Source: a virus | Lineage: Duplodnaviria; Heunggongvirae; Uroviricota; Caudoviricetes | IMG/VR virus record: IMGVR_UViG_2706796243_000001 | Direction: 5' to 3' (one strand) | Length of the DNA stretch: 64,000 nt | Shown: positions 16,431-61,914 of the stretch, piece after piece | Position numbering within the stretch: the first letter of the stretch is position 1 | Layout of the letters: each line of letters begins with the position of its first letter | Notes under the pieces: model-generated | Told to the model about the DNA's origin: nothing | The model's input: only the letters and a program-made list of their open reading frames with translations | Databases searched by the model: none | Made by a program: the position numbers and the translations under genes

Positions 16431-16924
16431 TATGCACTAAGGACTATAACTTTCTCTTTGTTGGCAGAAACATACTGCTCAACAAGCTTACCAGACAGAA
16501 TCCTTTCAAGAAGCCTACCGGGGAACCTACCAAACTTCTTCATCAGTAAATCGAAGTCAACACCTTTAGTCATTCTCAGCATAGCTGCCTCCTCATCAGT
16601 TGGGGAGGCGGGATCAAGGAACATATCCCTGCTGTAAACTTCTTTATCACCTATATAAACATTGTCAGGGTATACCCAGATATGTTCATCCTTGTTTGTG
16701 ACCATTTTAAAGATTTGCTCATCCTTACCAGGACTTCTTGTTACTATCAGCTTTGGGTAGATAATACCATCAACTACTGAGGTGTGTTTTCCCTGCACAG
16801 TAAGGATTACCGACCATTCAGATCCTGAGTTAACCCCAGACACTGCACCTGCAATACCGGGCAATCCGCAAATCATTTGGTGATTTGTATCTCTGACAAA
16901 CGATCTTATTAACTCTTTTTGCAT
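16430..16924 (-). CDS. hypothetical protein (164 aa)
   Basis: ORF; no motif recognised. Confidence 0.5.
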   Translation of the reverse strand: MQKELIRSFVRDTNHQMICGLPGIAGAVSGVNSGSEWSVILTVQGKHTSVVDGIIYPKLIVTRSPGKDEQIFKMVTNKDEHIWVYPDNVYIGDKEVYSRDMFLDPASPTDEEAAMLRMTKGVDFDLLMKKFGRFPGRLLERILSGKLVEQYVSANKEKVIVLSA

Positions 16925-17304
16925 AGGGTCTCCAAATCCTTAATCCATTGGAACTTATCAGTGTAAATCATCTGGTTCTTTTTGCTACGGTTTAATTTTG
17001 CGGGGATGACCTGGATGTTATCACCACAGTTAAGGCCAGAAACAATCTTTGCACGGAGGGGCAGCATGTGGTCGGACTCCCAACGGATGCCCGTTTCACG
17101 CATCCTCTCGTTGCAAAGAGTGTTGGCCTCTTCCCTGACGAAGATGTCCCATTCACTGTTCATAGTTGCACGTTTTTCTGCCTCAATACGGTCAAGGCGG
17201 ATCTGAAGCTGCCGTGCCTTACCCTCTGGTGTGGAACGACGCAAGCGATCTATTTCCCGTCTACGGGCAGCGTACATTTTGTAGTAATCTCCTCTGTCTC
17301 TCAC
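16909..17304 (-). CDS. HNH endonuclease-domain protein
   Basis: WESDHMLPL...CGDNIQVIPAKLNRSK matches the HNH His-Me finger DH..P.......N....C..CNR.K. Confidence 0.55.
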   Translation of the reverse strand: MRDRGDYYKMYAARRREIDRLRRSTPEGKARQLQIRLDRIEAEKRATMNSEWDIFVREEANTLCNERMRETGIRWESDHMLPLRAKIVSGLNCGDNIQVIPAKLNRSKKNQMIYTDKFQWIKDLETLCKKS

Positions 17305-17313
17305 AAAATCTCC

Positions 17314-17871
17314 TCAAAATAATGGATAAAAGTATACAAGAATGCTGATAATTGTATAAATAATAAACACTGCGAAGAATATTTTGTTTGGAGGGTTTCT
17401 GAACCAGTCTTTTATACGGTAACCCCACCCAAGCGACTTCTTGTGCTCGTTTATTACTCTGTCGATAGTCCTGTAAAGGTCTCTTATGGCGCTCTCAAAC
17501 CCCTCATAATGGTCAAAAGCCTCTTCAAGGTCCCTTGTGTCAAGTTTACCCATGTCACCGACACGGAATGTGTATGTCATTGGGTTTTGCGAATCTACTC
17601 CACGAGTTACTTCCAGTCGCCCTACACGAATGGTATAAAGGATGCTGTTTTTAGCATCCCTGATAATAAGAACTCGTTCATCCGCAGCATATTTACGAAC
17701 AAGTGCGATACAACCTTTTGAGTTTTCTATAAAACCCTTTTCCAGCAGGGTGTGCCAGTGCTCTTGTAGGGTAGGGTGTTCTCGAACCAATTTCTGAAAC
17801 ATACTACCTCCTATCATATTATTAACCACCATTTTATCACGGATAGCCTCAATTATACATAGGTGCAGCAT
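17314..17871 (-). CDS. hypothetical protein (185 aa), N-terminal TM helix
   Basis: ORF. Confidence 0.5.
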   Translation of the reverse strand: MLHLCIIEAIRDKMVVNNMIGGSMFQKLVREHPTLQEHWHTLLEKGFIENSKGCIALVRKYAADERVLIIRDAKNSILYTIRVGRLEVTRGVDSQNPMTYTFRVGDMGKLDTRDLEEAFDHYEGFESAIRDLYRTIDRVINEHKKSLGWGYRIKDWFRNPPNKIFFAVFIIYTIISILVYFYPLF

Positions 17872-17883
17872 GTTTCAGATTAA

Positions 17884-18114
17884 TCAACACTTTACAGAGC
17901 ACTTATCGCATGGACAAGACAACCCGTGGAAACATAAACCACCATCTTTTCGAATACCAGTGCCACCGCACTGTGGACATGCGTCATGAAGGCATTTTGA
18001 ATTTACACCAACAAGTTCACCAACCTTTTTAAGGTCATCACCAACGGAGGTAGGTATGGAGAACCTCTTCTTCAGGATCTCAGCCTGCTCTGGAGTTAAA
18101 AGTCCGTAGCTCAT
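17884..18114 (-). CDS. small Cys-rich (zinc-ribbon) protein (76 aa)
   Basis: CPQCGGTG...C.C..C. Confidence 0.4.
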   Translation of the reverse strand: MSYGLLTPEQAEILKKRFSIPTSVGDDLKKVGELVGVNSKCLHDACPQCGGTGIRKDGGLCFHGLSCPCDKCSVKC

Positions 18115-18472
18115 TCCAACTCCTTCAATTCAAGCCAGCAAGAGAAGTCACTCACCCACTCACCAATCCCGTCCATTTCTTCAGGGAACTCCTCTGGTGA
18201 TTTCTCATGGTCGTTTTTATAGTCCTGACGATATTGCTCAAGCAATTCCTTCTGCTTCTCAATGAATTCTTCAATTTTCATTTCGTCTCCTCATTACATA
18301 ATGAAACAGGGCAGCAAGGGGCCATGCAAAACCGACTGCGAAGCATATCTCCGACCAATCATGATCTGTTCTGGCCTTGTATACCTGGCGGAGAACTTTA
18401 TCGTTCTCCATCTTTACAGAATACACCACTGCAACAATTGCGTACAGAACACCTAACAATCCTACAATGGCT

Positions 18473-19552
18473 TCAAGCATCGATCTTGGCCCAGCAGATA
18501 TCTTGAGCGGTCATAAGTACACGAGCGGCGAGTTCAAGATCGGTTGTTTTTGGGAGATCTGTCTTTTTGTACAGGTCTTCTCGGATATAACGATCTTTCT
18601 CGTCAGCCCAAGCAAGAAGCTCTTCAAGGGTCCACTTGCCACCACGGATATCAAGCAGTTCCTGAGCGTCAGGCCGCTTAACCAGAACTTTACCGTCAGT
18701 AAGAATCTCTTCCGCCATACGCATCAGGCGCACGAGGTGCATCGCATGTTTGGTATCGTATCCGAACTGGACTTCGAGTTCATGACGAGCCTCATTGCGA
18801 TTTTCCTTCCACGTCCAGTAGTTCCGGTGCTTCTCTTTCGCCAGCTTGTGCTCTTCTGCCAGATATTTTACGATAAACAAAGGCTTACGCTTTTTATCCG
18901 CATCGGTCAGTTGCTGGTAATCGACATTACGAATCGATCCGTCAGCATTGAATAGGCCAGAACTATTAAAGTTCTCCATCACACCGTAAACGTTGTTACC
19001 GTAAGGTACGAGGATGCAGAAGCTGTTCAGGCCGTCCAGTGCCTGCATGAAATCCTCATGTTTCAGTAACGGGTGCTCGCTGTAGTTATGCACCAAGCGG
19101 AAAAACTCCTTCTGGGTTGGCTTTGCTTCAGGTTGTGGATTGCTGATCCACTTATCGTGACCACGAATACGCTTAAGCTGTGCCATTGCATAGCCTGAGA
19201 AGCTAAAGGCCACCTTGCTCGATAGCAGTTCTGGTGCCATTGTACGTAGATAGTCATACGCATCAGAGCTTTGCAGAATATCCTTCTCATCTACGAACAT
19301 AAGCTCGATGATGTTGGGGTTCATCTCCACGAAAAGCTTCATGAAGTTTGTCAGTTCATAAATCTTCCCATCTTCTTCGTCAGCAAGGGTTTGCTCCTTG
19401 ATATTGAAGAATGGTGTGCGGATGAACTTCGGTTCTGCACAGAAAAGCCCTCGGATATCGGTATCCGATGTTGGGAGGTTAGTCCCATAAGCGATGCTGC
19501 CAGAGTAGCAACGCATCAAGTCTACAGTTTTCATATTTCTCCTTAAGAGCAA
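18473..19552 (-). CDS. Pol-beta-superfamily nucleotidyltransferase, C-terminal helical region with an R-x4-H (HEPN-like) motif
   Basis: N-terminal SGSIAYGTNLPTSDTDIRG matches the minimal NTase signature G[GS]x9-13Dx[DE]; downstream RNEARH. Confidence 0.55.
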   Translation of the reverse strand: MLLRRNMKTVDLMRCYSGSIAYGTNLPTSDTDIRGLFCAEPKFIRTPFFNIKEQTLADEEDGKIYELTNFMKLFVEMNPNIIELMFVDEKDILQSSDAYDYLRTMAPELLSSKVAFSFSGYAMAQLKRIRGHDKWISNPQPEAKPTQKEFFRLVHNYSEHPLLKHEDFMQALDGLNSFCILVPYGNNVYGVMENFNSSGLFNADGSIRNVDYQQLTDADKKRKPLFIVKYLAEEHKLAKEKHRNYWTWKENRNEARHELEVQFGYDTKHAMHLVRLMRMAEEILTDGKVLVKRPDAQELLDIRGGKWTLEELLAWADEKDRYIREDLYKKTDLPKTTDLELAARVLMTAQDICWAKIDA

Positions 19553-19905
19553 ACAAGATTGGATGGTCGGTTTTTATCCCAGAAATTCAAGAGATCTTGG
19601 TACTTGATCTTCTCCTCCAAGAATTTCGCCTCGTCTCTCAAACGAATGATCTCCTGAATCAATAAAACTACCTCGTCCGGATACCAGCCTGTTGGCTCTT
19701 CTGCCTTGATCATGCACTCGCCCGACTTCCATTTCGACATGGAATAACGGTGTGCTGGATCTGGGTGATTAGGCCAAGAATCAACAAGGATTTTCGCCTT
19801 ATTTCCCTTGATTTGGTTTACCTTACCAGGGCGCAATTCATTGCCTCCCCAGTAGATATAAACCTCGTCACCAATCTTCAAGTCCTCTCCACGAACGTCT
19901 TTCAT
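19543..19905 (-). CDS. hypothetical protein (120 aa)
   Basis: ORF. Confidence 0.45.
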   Translation of the reverse strand: MKDVRGEDLKIGDEVYIYWGGNELRPGKVNQIKGNKAKILVDSWPNHPDPAHRYSMSKWKSGECMIKAEEPTGWYPDEVVLLIQEIIRLRDEAKFLEEKIKYQDLLNFWDKNRPSNLVCS

Positions 19906-19914
19906 TTATCCACC

Positions 19915-20247
19915 TTAGCTCAAGTAGCTCACCGATACAAGCACAAAGAAAAGAACATTCAGGCCGATGGATACCAGCATCTTTTCGTTCTTGATTACTT
20001 TCTCCTGCAAGATTGCACGGGCAGACAAAATATGTCTCCACATCCAAATCCCAAACAGGATTCCTGCGAACAGCCCAGCAGAAGGTGGGATCAGGGTTGT
20101 TACCATCATCAAGCCCTCGATAACGGCAAGGCAGACGAACATGGAGAAACTTCTTGCCTCCATCTTGAAATCTTCCCCGCTCATCCAGTGACGGGTCAGC
20201 AATACCACACCAAGCAGGGTGAATAGGGTATAAATTGTGTAGATCAT
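19915..20247 (-). CDS. hypothetical integral membrane protein (110 aa, ~4 TM helices)
   Basis: Hydrophobic profile. Confidence 0.45.
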   Translation of the reverse strand: MIYTIYTLFTLLGVVLLTRHWMSGEDFKMEARSFSMFVCLAVIEGLMMVTTLIPPSAGLFAGILFGIWMWRHILSARAILQEKVIKNEKMLVSIGLNVLFFVLVSVSYLS

Positions 20248-20429
20248 TATTCGGCGTCCTTTAACAGTTGTTGTTCAACACCTTTTACCACATCCCGCAG
20301 GGCGAGGTCAAAGAAATTCGTATTCTTTTTGTAATCTGACCCGATAGTTCGGATCTCAGTAGTAGCGATCAGCGTAGCTGAACGGATCATCTCGATAATC
20401 ACACTGCGGTCAAGTTCACTTACTTTCAT
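20247..20429 (-). CDS. hypothetical protein (60 aa)
   Basis: Short ORF. Confidence 0.3.
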   Translation of the reverse strand: MKVSELDRSVIIEMIRSATLIATTEIRTIGSDYKKNTNFFDLALRDVVKGVEQQLLKDAE

Positions 20430-20430
20430 C

Positions 20431-20919
20431 TTATTCTCCTTTCAGTCGGAATGATTTGATCATTGTGATCAGGTCTTTTTCAGGTTGTGTGTAGTTATGC
20501 ACCACATTTCCCATTTCATCGCGGTACTGGTTGGCTACCACAGGGGCGATGTACTTACCGGGTTGGTACAGATTGACCACATCGGAATACTGCGGGTCAT
20601 ACATGTACTGTGGCAATACCACAGCTACTGCTGTCATAGCGCCGTTCAGTGCATCCTGTTCTTCACAGAAAGAGGCCCACGGATAAGTGCTGCTCAGAGG
20701 TTTCAACTTCTCACACAGTTCTTGCAATGACGACTGGTATCCACCATTGAGGACGATCACGGTCTTATCGCGGTCAGCCCAATCCCACAACAGGTTTCCG
20801 GCATTGTTCCGGCGTTGAGAGTAATCCAAGAACATCTCAGACATCGCGTGTGCTGACTGGATACCTGCGTGAATGCCAGCAATGTATTGATTTACCACGC
20901 AGTACATACGTGTCTTCAT
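20431..20919 (-). CDS. hypothetical protein (162 aa), weak PTH2-like N-terminus
   Basis: CVVNQYIAGIHAGIQSAHA loosely resembles the PTH2 GKiAAQcsHA segment; tentative. Confidence 0.4.
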   Translation of the reverse strand: MKTRMYCVVNQYIAGIHAGIQSAHAMSEMFLDYSQRRNNAGNLLWDWADRDKTVIVLNGGYQSSLQELCEKLKPLSSTYPWASFCEEQDALNGAMTAVAVVLPQYMYDPQYSDVVNLYQPGKYIAPVVANQYRDEMGNVVHNYTQPEKDLITMIKSFRLKGE

Positions 20920-21134
20920 TTCTTTCTCCTTGCAATAACAAAATCTTCTTCAAAAATGGCGGCAATGGTGCCACCCACCAAACAGAAAAGTCCGAGAGGC
21001 CAAAAGACGATCATCAGCAGCCCGATGCCGACGGATGATGAACTTATCTTATCCATACAAAACCAATCCAACGCCAGAATCGTCAACATAGCCAGTATAC
21101 CAATGCACAAATAAATTACAAGCTCAATAGGCAT
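20916..21134 (-). CDS. hypothetical membrane protein (72 aa)
   Basis: Two TM helices; contains the dispersed 18-mer GGCGGCAATGGTGCCACC on the opposite strand. Confidence 0.35.
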   Translation of the reverse strand: MPIELVIYLCIGILAMLTILALDWFCMDKISSSSVGIGLLMIVFWPLGLFCLVGGTIAAIFEEDFVIARRKK

Positions 21135-21144
21135 TATTTTTCCC

Positions 21145-21372
21145 CTATTTGAAAAATTGTGTGAACTTAAACATGGCGCTTCTGTACGATGGATGCAATG
21201 CGTAATTGCATCCCTTATCCACGCACCAGTCGCTTGCCTTGTTCCTTAAGGCCACGAGGCCGCACCATGCACAAACCTGCTTCCCTGCGTGTTTGTCAGC
21301 GTAAAAGTGATGTTTCTCGTATGTGTACTCTTCCTTATCCGATTTCTTCATACAGAACTCCTTACCAGGCAA
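21145..21372 (-). CDS. small Cys-rich protein (75 aa)
   Basis: CAWCG...C..KGC. Confidence 0.35.
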   Translation of the reverse strand: MPGKEFCMKKSDKEEYTYEKHHFYADKHAGKQVCAWCGLVALRNKASDWCVDKGCNYALHPSYRSAMFKFTQFFK

Positions 21373-22615
21373 TTTGACGCTGTGTGACGCTGCGGATTGC
21401 GTCGATACGTGCCACCCTAATCATTTCCCCGATCTCAATCCCTGTTTTGCCCTTGCTCAAACCTTCAGCGGAGATTACTTTGGTATCTACCGCCACCATG
21501 CACCGGAAAGCATCCATCAGAACGTAGCCCTGTGGGTAAGGTTCTGCTGCCTTTGTCGGGCCACGGCCTTTTGCATCACAGAAACATGCGTCAGCCAGGG
21601 CGCTGACCTTCATAGCTGTCTTGATGCTCTTTACGTTACCAGCAGCTTCGAAAAGCTTCATTAGTGATCGCGGTTTTGCACCCTTGTTTCCACCACGAGG
21701 GGCGATGCAATGAACACGCGTATGGTGCTCAGTCACGTAGCGAGCAACGTCACGGAAATCGTTTGGCACACGAATACGTTCACACAGTGCATCAACCGGA
21801 GCAAGCCCTGCCTCTTCATGACCGAGCAGGTTCCCATACTTGGAGAATGTCACGGCCTTGCCAAAGTCGTGACACAGGACTGCAAACTTCGTGTATGGGT
21901 TTGCCTCGTACTGGTCTGCGATATCTAGGCACAGCAATGTGTGTATGAATGCGTCACCTTCCGGATGGTGTTCCGGAGGTTGCTCTACACCACGCAGCGA
22001 TTCCAGTTCTGGCAACTCGCCCAGTTCTGCCATTGCTTCAGCATAGGAACGGAAGTTATCAGACCCAAGAGCCTTTTCCATCTCTTTCCACTTACGCTCG
22101 CCACTGATACTTTCAAGTTCGTGACGGTTCTGGTAACAAAGAGATTTGGTCTCCGGATGGAGATCCCATTCCTTACCCAACTGCGCTTTGAATCTGTAAG
22201 CTCTCAGAATACGCAGAGGATCATCAAGAAACGCCAACGTTGTGTGTCGCAGGACCTTCTTTTCGATATCATATTGACCACCGAACGGGTCAATGATTTC
22301 TCCGGTATCCAGATCCTGAGCCATCGCATTAATAGTCAGATCCCGACGAGACAGGTCTTCTGCCAGTGTTACATCAGGGCTGAAAAAGGTCTCAAAACCT
22401 TTGTGACCGCTTCCAACCTTACGTTCAGTTCGAGCGAGCGCGTATTCTTCCTTGGTCTCCGGATGGAGGTATACCGGGAAGGAAGCGCCAACCTGGATGA
22501 ACCCTTTTTCAATCATTTGTTCGTGTGTTGCACCCACAACCACGTAGTCACGGTCGTGGACTTCACGGCCCAGCAAACCGTCACGTACTGCGCCACCTAC
22601 CAAATATACCTTCAT
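21362..22615 (-). CDS. cca: CCA tRNA nucleotidyltransferase with HD phosphohydrolase domain (full-length, class II bacterial type)
   Basis: MKVYLVGGAVRDGLLG...DRDYVVVG N-terminus is collinear with E. coli Cca; HD motif HHPEGDAFIHT; 417 aa. Confidence 0.85.
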   Translation of the reverse strand: MKVYLVGGAVRDGLLGREVHDRDYVVVGATHEQMIEKGFIQVGASFPVYLHPETKEEYALARTERKVGSGHKGFETFFSPDVTLAEDLSRRDLTINAMAQDLDTGEIIDPFGGQYDIEKKVLRHTTLAFLDDPLRILRAYRFKAQLGKEWDLHPETKSLCYQNRHELESISGERKWKEMEKALGSDNFRSYAEAMAELGELPELESLRGVEQPPEHHPEGDAFIHTLLCLDIADQYEANPYTKFAVLCHDFGKAVTFSKYGNLLGHEEAGLAPVDALCERIRVPNDFRDVARYVTEHHTRVHCIAPRGGNKGAKPRSLMKLFEAAGNVKSIKTAMKVSALADACFCDAKGRGPTKAAEPYPQGYVLMDAFRCMVAVDTKVISAEGLSKGKTGIEIGEMIRVARIDAIRSVTQRQIAW

Positions 22616-22624
22616 CTTTTCTCC

Positions 22625-22915
22625 TTAGAAATCTTCGTGAATATATGTTTTATAAATTTGTCTTAATGATTTCTTGTTGCTGAAGATGTCATACTCTTCA
22701 AGACCAGTCTCACCCTCAATGAAGAAGGTAAATTGCACACTGTTCCAACCATGCCCGTGATTAGACAATACCACTTCGGTGCTCGACCTGTCAATAGCAA
22801 CTTCAGTAACAAGAAGAATTTCTTCCTGATCGTGAGTTTTTAAAAATTCACGGGCCTTTTCCATGTCGTCATTCCAACCATTCTGGGGGTCAGTCAATTT
22901 TGCATAGAGATTCAT
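22625..22915 (-). CDS. hypothetical protein (96 aa)
   Basis: ORF. Confidence 0.4.
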   Translation of the reverse strand: MNLYAKLTDPQNGWNDDMEKAREFLKTHDQEEILLVTEVAIDRSSTEVVLSNHGHGWNSVQFTFFIEGETGLEEYDIFSNKKSLRQIYKTYIHEDF

Positions 22916-48838: not shown

Positions 48839-50121
48839 GTTAATGAATCAACTTCTCGTACACTCTGCCCTACAGGGAACTGAGGAACACCGTCGTCAGT
48901 CCTTGCTTGGAATGTGAAGTTGATGAACTTACCGACCAGAAGTAACATTCTCGCTTGAGAACGTTCTTCACGCGTCCCCTTCATCTTACAGTTAAATCTG
49001 GTTCCGTCTTTTTCTTCGCAGAGGAGAACGCCCTCACCGTTTTTGTCCTCCACAGAGTCCAACACCTTCGCTTCACCATCCTGGAACAGCTTCCATTTCT
49101 GAAGGTCGGAAGATCGCTGACCGAATTCATACACGCCTTTGAAGTTGCGGATAATAACACCTTCATAACCCTCTTGCATGTATCGCCCAATGAACCGCTT
49201 AACCGCATCTTCATTCAGGACAAACTCACCACGAACAACATTTATTTTTGGTGCATTGACCTCACAATCAAGTGAATACATCACGCTAACAAGATCAGAT
49301 AGTCGGTTTTTATCATGGCTCTCTGAATGCCACGGGCTGTTTGCGTTTACAGGAATATCGAAAATGTGATATTCAAGGTCCAAACTTGAGTAACCGCCAT
49401 ATCGGTCAACATCTTTCACCGGTTCAATACTTACATCGTATTCATCACCATCAAAATCTTTCCATACTTGCTCACCGTTGTCAATAGCTTTCTGATAGCG
49501 TTTCAGATCTGATTGGTAATCCTTTTCAATCTCAACCTCGATCTGCTCAGGTGTACGCCACTTCTTAGCCAGAGCAACAATCTTCTGTAAGCTCAGACCA
49601 TGAATATATAGTTCACCATCAAATTTGTCAAACCCAGTATGCTCTGCAAGTTCTTTTGTCTGCTGCAACAATGCACCTTGAACAGGGTACGTCTTGTTTC
49701 CGCGACTATTAAATACTGGGATACCATCTTTGTCAAGAGTTACAAGGGCGCGTACCCCATCAAGCTTAGGCTGCACATAAGCAGGGTAAACTAATGCTTT
49801 TGAACGTTTAATTGCATCGTGTGCGAGCATGGGAGAGAAGTTCTCCTCAGTCTGTAACGCCTCTTTTGTCTCACGATAACCAAGGCGTACTTGCTTCTCC
49901 CATTTTGATCGCGCTTCAAGCACAGCCTGAAATGCAGCAGTTGTTTGATTAGCACGACCAACATTTTTCATTTCACATTTGGTACGTTTTTGCTGTACCT
50001 TTCCATTTTCTTTACCAAACTCAACAACTACCTCATCGCCCTCTGTTCTAACATTCCAGACCTGATAAGATCCGTCCTTGTTAATGGCGTACAGTGTTGG
50101 GGTATCTAAAGCAATCGACAT
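48820..50121 (-). CDS. ATP-dependent DNA ligase
   Basis: Motif I KLDGVRAL (KxDG) and later nucleotidyltransferase motifs; 433 aa. Confidence 0.8.
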   Translation of the reverse strand: MSIALDTPTLYAINKDGSYQVWNVRTEGDEVVVEFGKENGKVQQKRTKCEMKNVGRANQTTAAFQAVLEARSKWEKQVRLGYRETKEALQTEENFSPMLAHDAIKRSKALVYPAYVQPKLDGVRALVTLDKDGIPVFNSRGNKTYPVQGALLQQTKELAEHTGFDKFDGELYIHGLSLQKIVALAKKWRTPEQIEVEIEKDYQSDLKRYQKAIDNGEQVWKDFDGDEYDVSIEPVKDVDRYGGYSSLDLEYHIFDIPVNANSPWHSESHDKNRLSDLVSVMYSLDCEVNAPKINVVRGEFVLNEDAVKRFIGRYMQEGYEGVIIRNFKGVYEFGQRSSDLQKWKLFQDGEAKVLDSVEDKNGEGVLLCEEKDGTRFNCKMKGTREERSQARMLLLVGKFINFTFQARTDDGVPQFPVGQSVREVDSLTWEPVY

Positions 50122-50897
50122 TATTTCTCCTTACCTTGTAATGCTGTCTTACATTCAAGATGATCTTCCACAATCTTGATGAAATTGTTGTTGCTGAAAG
50201 CCTCTACAGCACCACAACGGAATTGCATAACACCATGAGCATCATACTGCTCTTGCTCAAGATAGTTGATACGTGGGTTTACCACAAGCACCTTTGTTCC
50301 TCTACGAACAGCAGGAAACAACTCCCAGTTGAAGTTGATGACTGTATTTGAGCATCCGACAACGATCACCATATCTTCATTGGTAAGGGTGTCAAGGATG
50401 TCATACATCCTGCTGTATTCTGGTGCAAATTCACCAAAGAACACAACATTGGGCTTACACCATTTATACTGATCAGGATCAACCTCGTTATAGCCTACAT
50501 CAATAATCTCCGGCTTTCCTTTCGGGTTGTCCTTGACAATGATTTCCTTCAGGTATCCATGAATGTAGACCGTATCCTCTTTCGGCACACCAGCACGTTC
50601 CAAAAGATCATCAACGTTGGTGGTCAAGTTAACAACCTGCCCTGGATAACGCTGGAACCACTCTGCAACGCGAAGGTGAGCCAGGTTCGGATGAACAGTC
50701 GGCAGTTCAGCACGACGCTTATTGTAAAACATGTGGGTTTTATGGTAGAAGTTTCCACGGAATGCGTGGATATTGCAAACCTCTTCCAGATCGTATTCAT
50801 CCCACAACGCCTTACCTGTTGACTCATCAGTACGGAAAGTTCGAACACCACTCTCAGCAGAGAAACCAGCACCAGAAATAACAATCAAACGTCTCAC
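50121..50897 (-). CDS. Sir2-family NAD-dependent protein deacylase / ADP-ribosyltransferase
   Basis: GAGFSAESGVRTFR Rossmann NAD-binding motif typical of sirtuins. Confidence 0.8.
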   Translation of the reverse strand: MRRLIVISGAGFSAESGVRTFRTDESTGKALWDEYDLEEVCNIHAFRGNFYHKTHMFYNKRRAELPTVHPNLAHLRVAEWFQRYPGQVVNLTTNVDDLLERAGVPKEDTVYIHGYLKEIIVKDNPKGKPEIIDVGYNEVDPDQYKWCKPNVVFFGEFAPEYSRMYDILDTLTNEDMVIVVGCSNTVINFNWELFPAVRRGTKVLVVNPRINYLEQEQYDAHGVMQFRCGAVEAFSNNNFIKIVEDHLECKTALQGKEK

Positions 50898-50906
50898 TTA
50901 TTTCTC

Positions 50907-51314
50907 CTATTGTAATTTCAACGAGTTACGCAGACGACGCTCTTGAGCATCTCGTGTTTCCTGCGGAACGCTGTGAATAGAATCGTTACCATGACGGTTT
51001 TCAACCACCAAGCTAACTACTTGATATCCATAATCATTAGCCAAGTCAAGGTACGGTTTAATTTCTTTCTCGCTGGTTGAGGTATTTGAAACGATCACGC
51101 GATCATAACCGATATCCATTGCCAGGCGAACGTTTTTCTGGCACCACTCGTGCGCCTTGTGCTGGTTTTCCTGCTTCCACCGGTACTCACCATCAACATA
51201 GTGGAACATATCCGCTTCGTAATGTGGAACATTGCTGTCATTCTTCAGGAGTTCTGCAACGGTTGATTTACCCGCACCAGAAACCCCACGAAGGATGATT
51301 AATGTCTTTTCCAT
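50907..51314 (-). CDS. P-loop polynucleotide 5'-kinase-like protein (T4 Pnk kinase-domain-like)
   Basis: Walker A GVSGAGKST; 135 aa; collinear with the N-terminal kinase domain of T4 Pnk. Confidence 0.5.
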   Translation of the reverse strand: MEKTLIILRGVSGAGKSTVAELLKNDSNVPHYEADMFHYVDGEYRWKQENQHKAHEWCQKNVRLAMDIGYDRVIVSNTSTSEKEIKPYLDLANDYGYQVVSLVVENRHGNDSIHSVPQETRDAQERRLRNSLKLQ

Positions 51315-51323
51315 ACCCTCTCC

Positions 51324-51689
51324 TCAGTAATTGTTTCTCAGAATGGTTACACCATACCGTGCCAAACTATCTTTTGCAAGCATAAACTTATGCCCTGCTG
51401 AAGGGTTCGATGTGTGAACGAACAGCTTGACCGGGCCAAAGAGCATCTTTCCGAAGACAATCTTTTCCTCAAGCGCCAGGAAACACCAATACCCATCATG
51501 ATCAGAATCTTCTCCAAGATCATTATCGAAGTGCCACTCCGTGACACGACGATATGGTTTTGACCGATTTTCGAGAAACTGAATAAAATCCTGCGAATTT
51601 TTTATCCACAAGGCATCTGGATGCCCGTAATTAACGGGGTCCCTTAAGTCATCGAGCCACACCAACATAAAAACGACTCCCACGGTCAA
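51324..51689 (-). CDS. hypothetical protein (121 aa)
   Basis: ORF. Confidence 0.4.
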   Translation of the reverse strand: MTVGVVFMLVWLDDLRDPVNYGHPDALWIKNSQDFIQFLENRSKPYRRVTEWHFDNDLGEDSDHDGYWCFLALEEKIVFGKMLFGPVKLFVHTSNPSAGHKFMLAKDSLARYGVTILRNNY

Positions 51690-52626
51690 AGAGATCTTCT
51701 ATCGTAAAATAATCTTCAACTATCTTACGACGCTGCTGTGAATCCATAGCTGACCAAGCATCTTTGGTGTAGTATTCACGAATATGGTCAAGCAATTCGT
51801 AATACTCTTCATCAATACGCTGCTTTGCGTTGTCTGGATGATCCCAGATCATATCCCACTTGTTATCACCACCACGCATCAAGAACTTCTTCGCCAGATA
51901 ATGAGGGGATTTGATTTTCAACAGTAAGCTGAACGGATAGTTTGGCTCACGCACAACATAACCTTCGTGGTTGCAATGCTTTGACATTTCAACAACATCT
52001 GAAAATTTAACCATCTGGTGAACTTCAGGACGCTTGAATTTAGTAACATTCGCGATTCCGTCAAGAGCACCTTCAGGCAGCATAAAACTTGTGCCGTCAC
52101 GGTTCTGGATTCGAGCACCAATCAGGTACGCCCCAGGCTCTTCATCAACAATATGCGGATCAGATGGATCACAGATTTCGAAGATGAACGTCGCCTTTGC
52201 ACTTTCTGTCCACTTAATGAAGTGCTCAATGTCATTGCATTCAGCAATGATGTGATTCTTCGCCAGAACTGCAAAGTCTGATTCCAGAGTTCCTGTAGTT
52301 GACACCACAAGCTGGCCCTTATACACACCAGCGGATGCCATAAATCCATTAACTTTACGAACTGCATCAACCACCTTGTCTGCCGGAAGGTCTGTGCCAT
52401 TTTCGAAGTGATTGAAAATCTTGGTGAAAGGCCAGATAACCACATTGTCATCCGAATCAACCACCATGCCACGGCATTCCAGGAGACGTGGATCTGTGTT
52501 CCACAGATTATCCCAGAAGACATTGTTTTTGTACTTCAGAACTGATAGGCCAGCGAACGGGCCATCAGTGTAAGTCTTCTTGGTGACCAGCTTTTTAGCG
52601 ACCAGATCGTCTACGTTAAAGAGCAT
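51649..52626 (-). CDS. ATP-dependent RNA ligase (Rnl2-like nucleotidyltransferase)
   Basis: Motif I KVNG, motif III FIFEIC, motif IV EGYVVR and motif V LKIKS are all present; 325 aa. Confidence 0.6.
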   Translation of the reverse strand: MLFNVDDLVAKKLVTKKTYTDGPFAGLSVLKYKNNVFWDNLWNTDPRLLECRGMVVDSDDNVVIWPFTKIFNHFENGTDLPADKVVDAVRKVNGFMASAGVYKGQLVVSTTGTLESDFAVLAKNHIIAECNDIEHFIKWTESAKATFIFEICDPSDPHIVDEEPGAYLIGARIQNRDGTSFMLPEGALDGIANVTKFKRPEVHQMVKFSDVVEMSKHCNHEGYVVREPNYPFSLLLKIKSPHYLAKKFLMRGGDNKWDMIWDHPDNAKQRIDEEYYELLDHIREYYTKDAWSAMDSQQRRKIVEDYFTIEDLFDRGSRFYVGVAR

Positions 52627-53252
52627 GTTTCTTCTCCCATTAGGATGTCATATTCAATTTTTGCAATAATATCTTGCAGCTTTTGTCTTATTCTAACATC
52701 CTGTTCTGAGATTGCAAGAGATTTTGCATGATTTCTCTTTTCAATTTGCCAAGCTTTATGAGCATCGGTTTCTGTTCTGAAACTACCAATATACCTTCCT
52801 TTGTAGTGGCAGTAAAATGTGTCCGCAAGGCGGGTTTCTTTGGAAACCCCTATCATATACTTGCCATTTTTCTTAACAGATGAAAAGAATTGATTACATT
52901 CTTGTGTTACGAATGCACAAGACTCTGGTGAGTATATTTTTCCGTCACCGAGGATATCCTTATCCAAGTAGAGGCCAGCAACATCCGTATCACCAACCCA
53001 CGAAATGAAATTGGAAAGGTAATACCATTCATCGCATACTGATACACTTTCATAATATTGGTGTTTATTGTGCTTTACAAGACATCTTCGCAACATATTT
53101 CGCCACTTAAGATATACAGGATGGAAAATCCTTTTTCCATCAACAACCCTCTGTGTAATTATATCAGAGTCATTGATACCAAGAGGGGAGCTAAGATCTT
53201 TTTTCATAACCATCTGCCTGATAATACGTTGTATTATACGGTGTCTCAACAC
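52611..53252 (-). CDS. freestanding homing-endonuclease-like protein with AP2 DNA-binding domain (paralog of 949..1536)
   Basis: YLKWRNMLRRC...YESVSVCDEWYYLSNF and GRYIGSFRTETDAHKAW; overlaps both neighbouring genes. Confidence 0.5.
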   Translation of the reverse strand: MLRHRIIQRIIRQMVMKKDLSSPLGINDSDIITQRVVDGKRIFHPVYLKWRNMLRRCLVKHNKHQYYESVSVCDEWYYLSNFISWVGDTDVAGLYLDKDILGDGKIYSPESCAFVTQECNQFFSSVKKNGKYMIGVSKETRLADTFYCHYKGRYIGSFRTETDAHKAWQIEKRNHAKSLAISEQDVRIRQKLQDIIAKIEYDILMGEETCSLT

Positions 53253-53547
53253 TGAAGCTTACCTGGCATAATTCCTGAGCCAAGTATGTCCCAAGTTCAA
53301 CAGCCATGTCAAGAATTTCATGTTCTGGTCGCTCAAAACGAGGATACTGCATGATACGCACAGTCATACCGTCTTCCACACCACCAGTATAAACATAAGT
53401 ACAAGGGGAAATCTGCACACATGCTCCCCTCATCACCCAGTGTCGGCAAAGATTTTCCGCCTGGTTGTAACTGCCAGCAATATGTATTGTGGCGTAAAAA
53501 GATTTTGATGTTTTCTTAGGCAAGAAATTGCGTTTTTGGTTGTGCAT
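53191..53547 (-). CDS. hypothetical protein (118 aa)
   Basis: ORF. Confidence 0.4.
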   Translation of the reverse strand: MHNQKRNFLPKKTSKSFYATIHIAGSYNQAENLCRHWVMRGACVQISPCTYVYTGGVEDGMTVRIMQYPRFERPEHEILDMAVELGTYLAQELCQVSFSVETPYNTTYYQADGYEKRS

Positions 53548-53556
53548 ACCATCTCC

Positions 53557-54150
53557 TCAGTGATGAATATCGTAAATAGGCTTTTTAAGGCACTCAGAAA
53601 CGGCCTCAAGCATCGTCAAAGGACGACCGTGGACATCCCAACCCACATCAAGGATTCGTCCACCAGGTGCCTTATATGAGCCGTGGCTATGTCCGTGGAG
53701 CATGACTGATCCGTGGTGTGCTTTATTCCAAGATGCAAACGGGTAGTGCGACATACACACCCGAACTTTTTCTTTTCCTGTGCTGAAATCAATTTCTTTA
53801 TAGTCAACAACTTCGTGACCAAACTCGCGAAATACCCGCTTTGTCGTGTGGTTGTCGTGGTTGCCACCAACCAAAATGATCTTTCCGTTGATTCGGCTAA
53901 GAATGTCACGAACCTTCGGCTCCACATGCTTACCATACGCGATCACAAAATCACCTAAATGTGCAACAACATCATCAGGTTTCACATGTTTGTTCCATGT
54001 TTTAACCATGTCGTCATTCATCTTGACAACACTCGCTGAATCTTCTTTCGGTCCGTACAGGTTTTTACGGAACTTATCACAGGATGGGAAACCAAGAATA
54101 TTGGTATGCCACCAATGTGTATCTGATGTTACATGATCGATATTAGTCAT
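53557..54150 (-). CDS. calcineurin-like metallophosphoesterase
   Basis: GDFVIAYG, GNHD and GHSH motifs. Confidence 0.7.
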   Translation of the reverse strand: MTNIDHVTSDTHWWHTNILGFPSCDKFRKNLYGPKEDSASVVKMNDDMVKTWNKHVKPDDVVAHLGDFVIAYGKHVEPKVRDILSRINGKIILVGGNHDNHTTKRVFREFGHEVVDYKEIDFSTGKEKVRVCMSHYPFASWNKAHHGSVMLHGHSHGSYKAPGGRILDVGWDVHGRPLTMLEAVSECLKKPIYDIHH

Positions 54151-54524
54151 TTCTTTTTCTTCCTTTTCGTTGTTTTCTTATACAGCCCTAAAGCGGCGTT
54201 CTCTTGGGCGCACGTCATAACCTCTGTGAGTCCACGCCTTTCCAGTTCAGGCATGTTTAGTTCCCACCACCCCAGCCAGTAAATTTCATCTTTTGTAAGT
54301 GGTTCTGCGTTAGGATCTGCCTCTTGATCGTGCAAGCGTTGAATGGCTTCTTTGATGATCTCAACCTTTGTATTGAAAACAAAAGCTGTTGTATCGAATT
54401 TTTCCCTTACAGGTTTCTTGATGTCTTTTTTCATTTGTCCATGTCCTCCGCAGGGTATGCGTACAGAAGGTATTGGTTTCCACGGGGCAGATTGTTGTGC
54501 TGCCAAGTAATAAGCTTCAAGCAC
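54147..54524 (-). CDS. hypothetical protein with poly-Lys C-terminus (125 aa)
   Basis: ORF. Confidence 0.4.
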   Translation of the reverse strand: MLEAYYLAAQQSAPWKPIPSVRIPCGGHGQMKKDIKKPVREKFDTTAFVFNTKVEIIKEAIQRLHDQEADPNAEPLTKDEIYWLGWWELNMPELERRGLTEVMTCAQENAALGLYKKTTKRKKKK

Positions 54525-54730
54525 ACCAAGTTGACGACATTTCGATCACCATGAATGTACACACATGACTCCAACCACGACTTACCAATATCCACACGGC
54601 TGTCGAGATACAGTTTTGTATTGAACCGCTTTTCAGCGACAGCCATGATGTTCTTGAGAGCCATAAAAGCCTCTCTGCATACAGATTTTTCACCAGATAT
54701 GTGACTAAGCTTCAAAATAATCCTCCACAA
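54431..54730 (-). CDS. hypothetical protein (99 aa)
   Basis: ORF. Confidence 0.35.
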   Translation of the reverse strand: MWRIILKLSHISGEKSVCREAFMALKNIMAVAEKRFNTKLYLDSRVDIGKSWLESCVYIHGDRNVVNLVCLKLITWQHNNLPRGNQYLLYAYPAEDMDK

Positions 54731-54826
54731 TAGCCCTCAGAGCCTCTGAGCGGCCCTGTATTGAATTAAAATGGTGTGAGGAACCCAAGTGTACCACCAC
54801 ACCAACAAAACGTCTCAGAGAGGCTC

Positions 54827-55156
54827 TCAGAGCGTTATGAGAATCTCACTCAGATCCACCACACAATTATTACCTTCGATGTGCTCCACTGTCAAGTCTT
54901 TCATCTGAGTCACCACCACATTTGGTCTGCGTAGACGACCACGAACAGAGTCGTAGTAATTTCCAAACACCTCCTGTGCAGATTTACCATCTGGTAACAC
55001 CACACAAACTTTCTGATCCTTATTGCATTCATGAAAGACTTCACGTACCATCATCAATCGTGTGGTTTCTTCATCTGTAGGCATCGCCTTACGACGACTC
55101 TTACCACACACCATATCTCCAACAGCTTTAGCTTGTTTACTTGACAACATTAACAC
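54827..55156 (-). CDS. hypothetical protein (109 aa)
   Basis: First gene of the minus-strand block; divergent promoter region upstream. Confidence 0.45.
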   Translation of the reverse strand: MLMLSSKQAKAVGDMVCGKSRRKAMPTDEETTRLMMVREVFHECNKDQKVCVVLPDGKSAQEVFGNYYDSVRGRLRRPNVVVTQMKDLTVEHIEGNNCVVDLSEILITL

Positions 55157-55488
55157 TCTCCTCTAAAACGATAGGAGCATTGTACATGAACAAAACGAGA
55201 AGTCAACTCTTGACAACAGATTTTTGTTCATCCATACTGACCCAACTGACCCAACTGAGCCACTGGCTCTATGACTGTAGAATATATAGATCATACTTAA
55301 AGATCTTTTATATAGATCTTATGTTTTATTGTTTTGATTTTAAAAGATCATAAGTTAGTTTAATTGATAGGTTAGTATTGTATTCCTTTTTGGGAATAAT
55401 TAGACATTCCCGATTGGGAATAATTAGGTTGACATCTGCGTTACGTTGGTGTACATTCTAATTATATCTGTTCTGGAATAAATAGGAG

Positions 55489-55851
55489 ATGGTGGTGGAG
55501 ATAAAGATTGGTGATAACACTGTGAACATAAGGGATGGCTCTTACGTCACTATCCCGACACAGTGGCTTTTTGATGACCGTCTCTCACCACAAGATTTGC
55601 AAAGGTTGATAAAATTGTGGTGGAGGTATGATTACTTCAAGAGTTTAAACCCTGATGGTGGTGATGAGGTATTCTTTCCATCTCAAAAATCTTTGTGTCA
55701 TCTTTTTGGGTTGAGTGAGAAGTCACAACCGAAAGTATCAGAGTTCTTGACAAAGATAGAGTATCTTGGATACATTCGCCGCATACGCTCTGGTTTTCAA
55801 GATTCTAAAGGGAATGCAAAACCAAGGCATTACATAATTGTTAATAGATAG
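55489..55851 (+). CDS. winged-helix DNA-binding protein (120 aa)
   Basis: AGGAGA RBS; wHTH-like SQKSLCHLFGLSEKSQPKVSEFLTKIEYLGYIRRI. Confidence 0.5.
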   Translation: MVVEIKIGDNTVNIRDGSYVTIPTQWLFDDRLSPQDLQRLIKLWWRYDYFKSLNPDGGDEVFFPSQKSLCHLFGLSEKSQPKVSEFLTKIEYLGYIRRIRSGFQDSKGNAKPRHYIIVNR

Positions 55852-55859
55852 AGGATGTT

Positions 55860-56420
55860 ATGCTTGAAGTTATAAAATCGAAAGAGATAAGTGCTTCTGA
55901 AAAGGTTCTTTTGATGTTTATGGGGTTGAATGGTGTTGGGGTTTATACTTACCAAGATTTCATAAACTCCACAGGGTTGAGTAGAGCCACTGTTGGTAGG
56001 TCACTCTCTTCTCTGTATGAAAAGGGTTGGATCGAGAAGAAAACCGCCATCTCTGACAGTGGAGCGGAGAGTATTCAGTACAGTATTTCGTTTGGTGATT
56101 CTACAAATCCAAAATTTGAAAGAACCTGCTACGTTTATGTTCAAGAGCTTGCAGGCCCAGGCTTAACAATCGGAAAAGTTGGTATAGCATTTAATGTTTT
56201 CGAAAGAATGCGCCAACAATCAAAGAAAAGTTTGTTTCAGCACAAACTGATGTACTCCAAGCTGTTCAAAAGTTATGCTGAAGCTGCCAAAGTTGAGCAG
56301 ATTGTGTTGAGTGCGATCCCACAATTTGTTTGTGAAAAAGATTGGTTACCTGACGGCTTCACAGAGACAATCCACAAGCAAGATATTTTAAAGGCTATTC
56401 AAATAATTGAGGAGAAATAA
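55860..56420 (+). CDS. winged-helix DNA-binding protein (186 aa)
   Basis: YQDFINSTGLSRATVGRSLSSLYEKGWIEKK, a MarR/Rep-like wHTH. Confidence 0.5.
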   Translation: MLEVIKSKEISASEKVLLMFMGLNGVGVYTYQDFINSTGLSRATVGRSLSSLYEKGWIEKKTAISDSGAESIQYSISFGDSTNPKFERTCYVYVQELAGPGLTIGKVGIAFNVFERMRQQSKKSLFQHKLMYSKLFKSYAEAAKVEQIVLSAIPQFVCEKDWLPDGFTETIHKQDILKAIQIIEEK

Positions 56421-57222
56421 AATGAGTTTAGAACTTCGTCTGAACAACCTGATAGTCCCTGTTGATCGCCTTACATTCAAGGGTGGTGAAGAACAGGTTA
56501 AGATCGATTTAAGTTATGCACCAAAAGGTCACATTGGTTTTGTTGACATCACAGCAAAAATCAAGACATCTGCGGATGTTATGGCTCTTGCTCTGCTGGC
56601 AGATGCTTGCTCTCGACTTGATAACATTGATATTCATGCACAGTATGTCCTTCACCTGCCGTACATCCCCTATGCGCGTCAAGATCGTGTTATGCAACCT
56701 GGCGAGGCATTGTCCATCAAGGTTTTTGCAAACATCGTTAACTCACTTGGGTTTGATAAGGTTATCGTAGATGACCCGCACAGTGATGTTTCTGCTGCAC
56801 TTCTGAACAATGTTCGTATTCGGCACCAACATGAACTTGCAGCATCCTATAGTGATGTACTTGCTGGTAGGGATGTTACGATTATCGCACCAGATGCCGG
56901 AGCACGTAAAAAAGCGCAGAAGGTTTCTGAACATCTCCGTCTTCCGCTTGTTGAAGCAGGTAAGGTCCGTGATGTAAAAACTAACGAGATCACAGGTACT
57001 GCTGTCTTCGGGGATGTTACTGGTCGTGAATGTGTCATCGTTGATGACATTTGTGATGGTGGTCGCACATTCATCGCCCTTGCACAAGCGTTGAAGGAGA
57101 ATGGTGCAAAACGTGTTATCCTTTATGTAACACACGGTATTTTCTCATTCGGCAAGCAGGTCATTCTTGATGGTGGTGTAGATGAAATTTATGCATATCA
57201 CGACTGGACAGAAAACTTCTAA
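56407..57222 (+). CDS. ribose-phosphate pyrophosphokinase (PRS)-like protein; candidate ADPR-PP synthetase (Adps-like)
   Basis: PRTase PRPP-binding loop VIVDDICDGGRTF; shorter than bacterial Prs at 271 aa; lies directly upstream of the NAMPT-like gene. Confidence 0.7.
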   Translation: MRRNKMSLELRLNNLIVPVDRLTFKGGEEQVKIDLSYAPKGHIGFVDITAKIKTSADVMALALLADACSRLDNIDIHAQYVLHLPYIPYARQDRVMQPGEALSIKVFANIVNSLGFDKVIVDDPHSDVSAALLNNVRIRHQHELAASYSDVLAGRDVTIIAPDAGARKKAQKVSEHLRLPLVEAGKVRDVKTNEITGTAVFGDVTGRECVIVDDICDGGRTFIALAQALKENGAKRVILYVTHGIFSFGKQVILDGGVDEIYAYHDWTENF

Positions 57223-57289
57223 AATTTCTTGACATAGTATAAAACGGGTGCAAGAATGCACCCACAAATTTCACAGAGGAGAAACAAAC

Positions 57290-61069: not shown

Positions 61070-61146
61070 GGTTCTGTAGCTTAGTTGGTTAGAGCGCTTC
61101 CCTCATAAGGAAGAGGTCGCAGGTTCAATTCCTGCCAGAACTACCA
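61070..61146 (+). tRNA. tRNA-Met (anticodon CAU; could also be an Ile lysidine type), CCA encoded
   Basis: Cloverleaf: acceptor GGTTCTG/CAGAACT, D-arm AGCTTAGTTGGTTAGAGC, anticodon arm CTTCC-CTCATAA-GGAAG, T-arm GCAGG-TTCAATT-CCTGC. Confidence 0.8.
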
Positions 61147-61838: not shown

Positions 61839-61914
61839 GGGGTATTAACACAGCGGTTAGTGTAGCGGCCTCTTAAGCCGAAGGTCGAAGGTTCGAATCC
61901 TTCATGCCCCACCA
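61839..61914 (+). tRNA. tRNA, probable Lys (anticodon CUU), CCA encoded
   Basis: Acceptor GGGGTAT/ATGCCCC (one G-U pair), D-stem ACAC/GTGT, anticodon loop CTCTTAA (one mismatch in the stem), T-arm GAAGG-TTCGAAT-CCTTC. Confidence 0.6.

Follow-up and report, generated by a model that had tools for sequence, protein, structure and literature searches.

The gene that occupies positions 18473–19552 on the minus strand of a 64,000-nucleotide stretch of tailed-phage DNA (Caudoviricetes; IMG/VR record IMGVR_UViG_2706796243_000001; hereafter, the window) raises two questions: what does the encoded nucleotidyltransferase (NTase) modify, and does its helical C-terminal half carry an RNase site? An earlier note, made from the sequence alone, had described the product as a Pol-beta NTase fused to a HEPN-like RNase motif and had linked this pairing to toxin-antitoxin and defence modules. 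The window is the final 64 kb of the genome of Salmonella phage SSE121 (NC_027351.1; Seunavirus, Vequintavirinae), with 100% identity between window positions 17000–22700 and the SSE121 record (window position = SSE121 record position - 83745; window positions are used throughout). The gene is SSE121 gp161 (YP_009148957.1; 18473..19534, -), an open reading frame (ORF) of 353 amino acids plus stop that is 100% identical to the annotated coding sequence and already bears the RefSeq label 'nucleotidyltransferase'. Based on its family membership and gene context, we infer that gp161 is a phage NTase of the RlaP family that refills the 3' ends of RNAs or tRNAs, as part of a phage gene set for RNA repair and tRNA maintenance, a reading to which we assign a probability of roughly 0.6.

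The catalytic core of gp161 lies at its N-terminus, where residues 11–29, SGSIAYGTNLPTSDTDIRG, contain the GS...DxD signature (G12-S13 ... D24-x-D26; 19457..19501, -). All four residues are invariant or nearly so among 40 close homologues and among 108 distant family representatives (clusters at or below 50% identity). Such conservation lies far above chance and shows the Pol-beta NTase signature to be real, as the earlier note had proposed. The candidate for the third metal-binding carboxylate is D55 (19370..19372, -), which stands directly before a predicted strand (residues 56–60) and is D in 98 and E in 9 of the 108 representatives; E77 may serve as an alternative.

Profile searches place this core in a known family. 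The NTase half of gp161 matches Pfam RlaP (PF10127) with 50.9 bits (gathering score 23; E 2.2e-13), and the full-length protein matches PHROG 388, 'nucleotidyltransferase' (E 4e-80). Homologues numbered 1768 at 90% clustering, with PF10127 present in all 120 of those listed, and 5601 representative clusters were related to gp161 at E<=1e-3. The 380 phage records with homologues include Vequintavirinae, jumbo phages (121Q, GAP32, K64-1), Lak phages, and T4-like phages. A scan of prokaryotes (one genome per species, 185,579 species) yielded eight loci, every one on a contig of a metagenome-assembled genome (MAG), thus the close gp161 subfamily is essentially phage-borne. When the gp161 subfamily was aligned to 40 canonical bacterial RlaPs (~260 aa) using hhalign, the two matched in the NTase domain (probability 91%, E 1e-6). 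In one homologue (P0228), a canonical RlaP and a protein of the gp161-type subfamily are joined in tandem, implying that the two are distinct paralogues within PF10127. These matches assign gp161, as a phage protein, to the RlaP (RNA-ligase-associated Pol-beta) NTase family. A sequence search of the Protein Data Bank (PDB) using gp161 and two family profiles (A1 and A2) returned no meaningful match, with the Pseudomonas fluorescens RlaP structure apparently absent from the PDB copy that was searched. The family is said to have been named by Burroughs and Aravind (2016) for its association with RNA ligases.

The activity predicted for gp161 follows from work on other members of this family. According to a proposal by Iyer et al., nucleotides lost to nucleases such as RloC are put back by phage RlaPs ahead of ligation (PMC7824862). 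Carruthers, Fatma and Huang (bioRxiv, December 2025; PMC12776372) showed that the RlaPs of P. fluorescens (PfRlaP) and P. aeruginosa (PaRlaP) put 1–2 nucleoside monophosphates (NMPs) onto the 3'-OH of RNA, with a preference for Mn2+ and for mimics of cleaved tRNA. These enzymes accept dATP, leave DNA and protein unmodified, including E. coli proteins, which were not labelled, and partly rescue the aminoacylation of tRNA missing one nucleotide (PMC12776372). The crystal structure of PfRlaP contains an NTase domain and a C-terminal helical domain that together frame a conserved, positively charged cleft, with the last helix packed onto the NTase domain (PMC12776372). By analogy, the N-terminal domain of gp161 would bind two divalent metals via D24, D26, and a third carboxylate (putatively D55), and would use a nucleoside triphosphate (NTP) as donor of the NMP that is joined to the 3'-OH of the RNA. 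The C-terminal helical domain (R246, R250, K262, R269, R287, R297, H263, and H266) would line the other side of the cleft and hold the triphosphate and the RNA end, the roles of the individual residues being conjectural. In this way, gp161 may replace one or two nucleotides missing from tRNAs or other RNAs that were cut or trimmed by host ribotoxins, after which the phage RNA ligases (an Rnl1-type enzyme and the Rnl2-type gp090) and a CCA-adding enzyme would finish the repair.

An AlphaFold2 model of gp161, built on a 40-sequence alignment (pLDDT 90.6), comprises three parts. The N-terminal Pol-beta NTase domain (residues 1–131; 19142..19534, -), which is also the part matched by Pfam RlaP and hhalign, has a beta/alpha core followed by helices 91–103 and 108–131. 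An inserted alpha/beta subdomain (residues 135–225; 18860..19132, -), defined by DSSP of the model, is missing from two short homologues (P0212 and P0260; 292–298 aa) and from canonical RlaP, and is variable in alignment A1. The C-terminal domain (residues 226–353; 18476..18859, -) is predicted to consist of six helices, with R246, R250, K262, R269, R287, and R297 as its invariant basic residues.

Conservation within the C-terminal domain is concentrated in a D260-x-K262-H263-x-x-H266-x-x-R269 motif (18728..18757, -) at the start of helix 261–280. This motif is invariant, with K262 and R269 found in 108/108 representatives, and further invariant positions comprise E254, D260, H263, H266, E276, R287, D289, R297, and G299. 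Three homologues of ~700 aa (P0121, P0123, and P0148) contain an intein-like insert of ~350–400 aa, with a Cys at its start and HGN at its end, that sits exactly between D260 and T261 (GYD/C...HGN/TKHAMH; window 18752-18757). Because inteins insert exactly there, the GYD/TKHAMH motif is likely to be functionally central, as in an active-site element, although a Pfam scan of P0121 and P0148 recognised no intein domain. The D260–R269 motif probably forms the NTP- and RNA-binding wall of the cleft.

The relationship of this domain to the corresponding part of canonical RlaP is weaker. A direct profile comparison (A2) revealed no significant similarity between the two, and hhalign matched them weakly, though co-linearly, in two places: the final helix and an LLxx[KR]xG segment (P 0.003). 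That the gp161 C-terminal domain is that of RlaP had also been suggested by short homologues that match the whole Pfam profile; this argument was rejected because the C-terminal part contributes no score. With the A2 test non-significant and the weak co-linear match alone remaining, we downgraded the claim that the two families share a C-terminal domain.

Compared to Pseudomonas RlaP (PF10127 cluster 1a), gp161 has the same GS/DxD/D Pol-beta core and, in its model, likewise a helical C-terminal domain behind the NTase domain. RNA-repair genes accompany the Pseudomonas enzyme and several phage homologues of gp161, and the same reaction is predicted for gp161. Its C-terminal motifs (R-N-x2-R and D-x-K-H-x2-H-x2-R) resemble the canonical ones weakly, in co-linear order (P 0.003). 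Unlike the ~260-aa Pseudomonas enzyme, gp161 has 353 aa with a 90-residue alpha/beta insertion and is located outside any rtcB-rtcA operon. T4 NrdC.11 (336 aa, RlaP cluster 5), which is placed in the RlaP family (PMC12776372), is like gp161 phage-encoded with a Pfam match in its N-terminal half only. The NTase domains of the two share 24% identity (E 9e-8), and the G-x-D-x-K-x3-H-x2-R segment also aligns, but NrdC.11 is very divergent, has a Lys at the position of His251, and resides in an nrdC/mobD neighbourhood. A literature search for nrdC.11 found no functional data.

The gene neighbourhood of gp161 connects it to tRNA metabolism. Within a long minus-strand block of early/middle genes, a CCA-adding tRNA nucleotidyltransferase with an HD domain (21362..22615, -; Pfam PolyA_pol, PolyA_pol_RNAbd, and HD; PHROG 2244) lies 1.8 kb upstream of gp161 and is transcribed in the same direction. 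Between the two is a PTH2-like 'hydrolase' of 162 aa (20431..20919, -; PHROG 3668), whose match to Pfam PTH2 (E 0.0019) is below the cutoff. The CCA-adding enzyme (class II) resembles the activity predicted for gp161 in that it belongs to the Pol-beta superfamily, performs untemplated addition to RNA 3' ends, and is part of the same conserved gene block. It differs from gp161 in its PolyA_pol head, its RNA-binding and HD domains, its defined CCA product, and its specificity for the tRNA acceptor end.

Farther away, the window encodes an Rnl1-type RNA ligase (51649..52626, -; Pfam RNA_lig_T4_1, E 3e-13; PHROG 562), which is annotated as 'RNA ligase and tail fiber attachment catalyst', and, ~1 kb from it, a phosphoesterase of PHROG 547 (53557..54150, -). 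The second SSE121 RNA ligase, the Rnl2-type gp090, is encoded outside the window. Two phage tRNA genes, for tRNA-Met(CAT) and tRNA-Lys(CTT), are located at 61070-61146 and 61839-61914 (+). Since tRNA-Lys is a classic target of anticodon nucleases, a phage copy of its gene fits the theme of tRNA maintenance.

We surveyed 88 related loci. The CCA(-PTH2-like)-NTase arrangement was found in 19 of them, and 14 loci keep the PTH2-like hydrolase in the middle position. In Vibrio phage D148 (47% identity), the order CCA - hydrolase - NTase - Thg1 - Rnl1 - PNK is contained within 11 kb, PcCB7V has CCA - Pth - NTase with the hydrolase annotated as a peptidyl-tRNA hydrolase, and ABPH49 retains the linkage between the CCA enzyme and the NTase. 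Elsewhere, Thg1 is encoded 3 kb from the NTase in GAP32, and KptA is 4–5 kb from the NTase in a Clostridioides difficile phage and in two MAG contigs. Several independent arrangements thus repeat the association with RNA and tRNA repair, whereas in the most numerous group of loci the gene belongs to a replication and recombination cluster.

Several observations weigh against the RNA-repair reading. The enzymes characterised so far belong to a different PF10127 cluster from the gp161 subfamily, detectable similarity to them is strong in the NTase domain alone, and the insert of ~90 residues has no known counterpart. The SSE121 RNA ligases are not adjacent to gp161, the Rnl1-type enzyme being 32 kb away. 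Moreover, in 57 of the 88 loci (L035-L100), which belong to a single environmental phage lineage, the NTase gene is part of the replication and recombination cluster, with the order gp32-like - RecA/UvsX-like - NTase - two unknown ORFs - UvsW-like helicase - Pol III alpha fragments. The two unknown ORFs of this block (~172 and 152 aa) had no match in Pfam or PHROG. Lastly, six homologues carry a fused C-terminal DEDD exonuclease, and the best solved relatives of the exonuclease part of P0147 (the sole one tested) are DNA Pol III epsilon (E 7e-21).

These contexts and fusions, together with the efficient use of dATP by PfRlaP (PMC12776372), favour an enzyme of DNA ends, which would add NMPs or dNMPs to DNA 3' ends or play a role in replication, recombination, or repair, in some lineages with a proofreading-type 3'-5' exonuclease. 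We consider this alternative unlikely, though it deserves the most serious weighing. PfRlaP and PaRlaP leave DNA unmodified (PMC12776372), the 57 syntenic loci may represent one evolutionary event, RNA is also trimmed by DEDD exonucleases, and the lineages nearest to SSE121 (49–87% identity) tie the NTase to tRNA enzymes. Even the UvsX-context lineage is mixed: in eight of its loci, the order is NTase - PHROG 547 phosphoesterase - HAD phosphatase, with the phosphoesterase ~1.5 kb downstream of the NTase and one intervening ORF. At ~4 kb downstream of the NTase, Rnl1 is found in L080 and L099 (PHROG 562) and in L091 (a tblastn match). Of the eight phosphoesterase loci, L091 and L099, whose contigs extend far enough, have this Rnl1 match.

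Besides the six exonuclease fusions, there is a homologue with an attached APS-kinase-like P-loop domain (homologues with domain fusions, including the tandem protein: P0147, P0165, P0174, P0190, P0198, P0227, P0264, and P0228). The genomic contexts of the NTase-exonuclease fusions are uninformative save for one (L103), where Nmad3 and NADAR genes follow. The fusions fit an enzyme acting on nucleic-acid 3' ends, which keeps a DNA substrate under consideration.

The second question concerns RNEARH (residues 246–251; 18782..18799, -), which the earlier note had identified as the Rx4-6H motif of HEPN RNases. In composition-preserving shuffles of gp161, Rx4H occurred in 39%, Rx4-6H in 77%, and R[NDH]x3H in 7%, and as an Rx4H string RNEARH is no more than chance. 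Among the 108 representatives, R246, N247, and R250 are nearly invariant, whereas position 251 varies (A44/S34/H11/L6/G3/T2), thus the conserved element is R-N-x-x-R, not R-x4-H. Characterised HEPN RNases depend on the motif His for catalysis (PMC3710099), whereas ~90% of the representatives related to gp161 lack it (replaced by A, S, or G) in a site that is otherwise invariant. Among the surveyed loci, His251 (18782-18784) was restricted to those linked to the CCA enzyme (14/19) and was missing from the UvsX/UvsW-context loci, 57 or more in number, all of which have Ser, Gly, or Ala at this position. His251 may be a lineage marker or have a lineage-specific function. The alignments indicate that this His stands outside the conserved machinery of the family, as a lineage-specific coincidence and not a conserved RNase site.

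The restricted distribution of His251 can also be read as specialisation. The SSE121-like sub-lineage, with its CCA - PTH2-like - NTase block, might encode a specialised counter-defence enzyme for tRNA ends that is possibly bifunctional: the lineage-specific, HEPN-like His would trim or resolve a damaged end, the NTase would refill it, and the target would be host toxins that act on the acceptor end or the anticodon loop of tRNA. Such an enzyme would parallel the NTase-DEDD exonuclease fusions of other lineages. We regard this variant as quite improbable.

Searches for a HEPN domain or a defence module beyond the motif itself were negative. The full-length protein had no HEPN-type match in Pfam at E<=1, and none of the 31 C-terminal domains scanned against Pfam at E<=10 matched HEPN (PF05168), DUF86, NTase_sub_bind, or KNTase_C, the scan giving only noise. 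NCBIfam MntA matched gp161 at 12.2 bits, below its cutoff of 60, PADLOC gave 0 matches of gp161 to defence systems, and no HEPN or minimal nucleotidyltransferase (MNT) partner adjoins the gene, which is flanked by a DUF7205 protein and a 69-aa membrane protein. Fold searches returned only weak, generic similarity to helical bundles. The helical region could at most be a degenerate, substrate-binding descendant of the HEPN fold. Domains of this kind are a recognised class: catalytically inactive, HEPN-like substrate-binding domains are fused to the NTases of kanamycin NTase/ANT(4'), LinB, GlnE/GlnD, and DrrA (Anantharaman et al. 2013, PMC3710099), so that fused pairings are not the rarity that the earlier note had supposed.

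Two further functions for a Pol-beta fold were considered, and both have a very small chance of being correct. The first is a synthase, or a mimic, of nucleotide or oligonucleotide signals (CD-NTase-like or Hailong HalB-like) through which the phage would manipulate host defence; no defence-system profile match with an adjacent effector gene was found. The second is a nucleotidylyltransferase of small molecules or proteins, such as the aminoglycoside and lincosamide NTases or the GlnE and DrrA AMPylators. The comparison of the family with KNTase using hhalign (kanamycin NTase query sequence verified against 6un8/1kny) was non-significant (E 0.08–0.15) and aligned the GS/DxD segment alone, and the Foldseek match was confined to ~139 N-terminal columns. 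In addition, RlaPs left E. coli proteins unlabelled (PMC12776372), and the locus has no antibiotic-resistance or AMPylation context.

The least probable proposal is a fused MNT-HEPN module that acts as an AMPylating toxin, as an antitoxin or decoy, or as a bifunctional NTase/HEPN RNase that cuts RNA via R246...H251: RNEARH does match the canonical R-[NDH]-x3-H form (PMC3710099), R246 and N247 are nearly invariant, and the His is kept in most CCA-linked loci, but the motif is at chance level in shuffles, the His is missing from most of the family, there is neither a HEPN profile match nor a toxin or antitoxin partner, and HEPN domains fused to NTases are typically without catalytic residues (PMC3710099). 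The resemblance to the MntA-HepT type VII toxin-antitoxin system is limited to the minimal NTase fold and to the R-N-x3-H string in gp161 itself; MntA-HepT consists of two small, separate proteins, in which a HEPN RNase toxin is AMPylated by the MNT, whereas gp161 is a single 353-aa protein without a partner.

A catalytic HEPN site or a toxin-antitoxin or defence module in gp161 is thus not supported, because the His is absent from ~90% of the family and both a HEPN profile match and a partner gene are lacking. The HEPN part of the earlier note essentially falls, since gp161 belongs to a family, RlaP, whose activity has recently been characterised and structure prediction pointed to no specific HEPN likeness. 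What stands of that proposal is a Pol-beta-fold NTase with a helical C-terminus, given the conservation and the AlphaFold2 model, and, of the functions offered for it, the RNA 3'-tailing enzyme, which comes close to the reading favoured here.

The start of gp161 also required revision. The longest mechanical ORF (18473..19552, -; 359 aa) begins with a TTG at 19552, which the earlier note had taken as the start. A Shine-Dalgarno sequence, AAGGAG (19539..19544, -), read directly from the sequence, is located 4 nt before an ATG at 19534, and this ATG is both the start used by RefSeq and the N-terminus of all homologues. The true start is therefore the ATG at 19534, and the upstream TTG is merely the start of the mechanical ORF. 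The TAA stop (19543-19545) of the upstream neighbour, a DUF7205 protein of 120 aa (19543-19905, -), overlaps the Shine-Dalgarno sequence of gp161. Downstream, a 69-aa ORF with two hydrophobic stretches (18271-18480, -; predicted to span the membrane twice; PHROG 11850) has a start that overlaps the gp161 stop by 8 nt. Both immediate neighbours look translationally coupled to gp161.

Other genes of SSE121 were noted in passing. An ORF of 131 aa annotated as hypothetical (16909-17304, -) matches PHROG 1035, 'endonuclease VII' (E 2e-18), with no match in Pfam, and probably belongs to the small homing-type nucleases that abound in this phage. According to RefSeq, gp218, gp229, and gp230 (window ~50121-58984) are a Sir2-like protein, a ribose-phosphate pyrophosphokinase, and a nicotinamide phosphoribosyltransferase. 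Together with an NMN adenylyltransferase and a PnuC-like transporter encoded elsewhere in SSE121, they make up, by annotation, an NAD-salvage set.

As an annotation, gp161 is routine: the RlaP family is known, having been predicted in 2016 and first assayed in 2025. The phage subfamily represented by PHROG 388 is large, nearly absent from cellular genomes, and set apart from the assayed enzymes by its insert and its own C-terminal motifs. The mixture of RNA-repair and DNA-replication contexts, along with the DnaQ-like fusions, bears on the question of which substrate PHROG 388 enzymes use. If the RNA-repair reading is true, SSE121-like phages carry a fuller kit for tRNA maintenance than is usually noted, consisting of a CCA enzyme, a PTH2-like hydrolase, an RlaP, two RNA ligases, and a phosphoesterase, and this kit would bear on the resistance of these phages to host defences that target tRNA.

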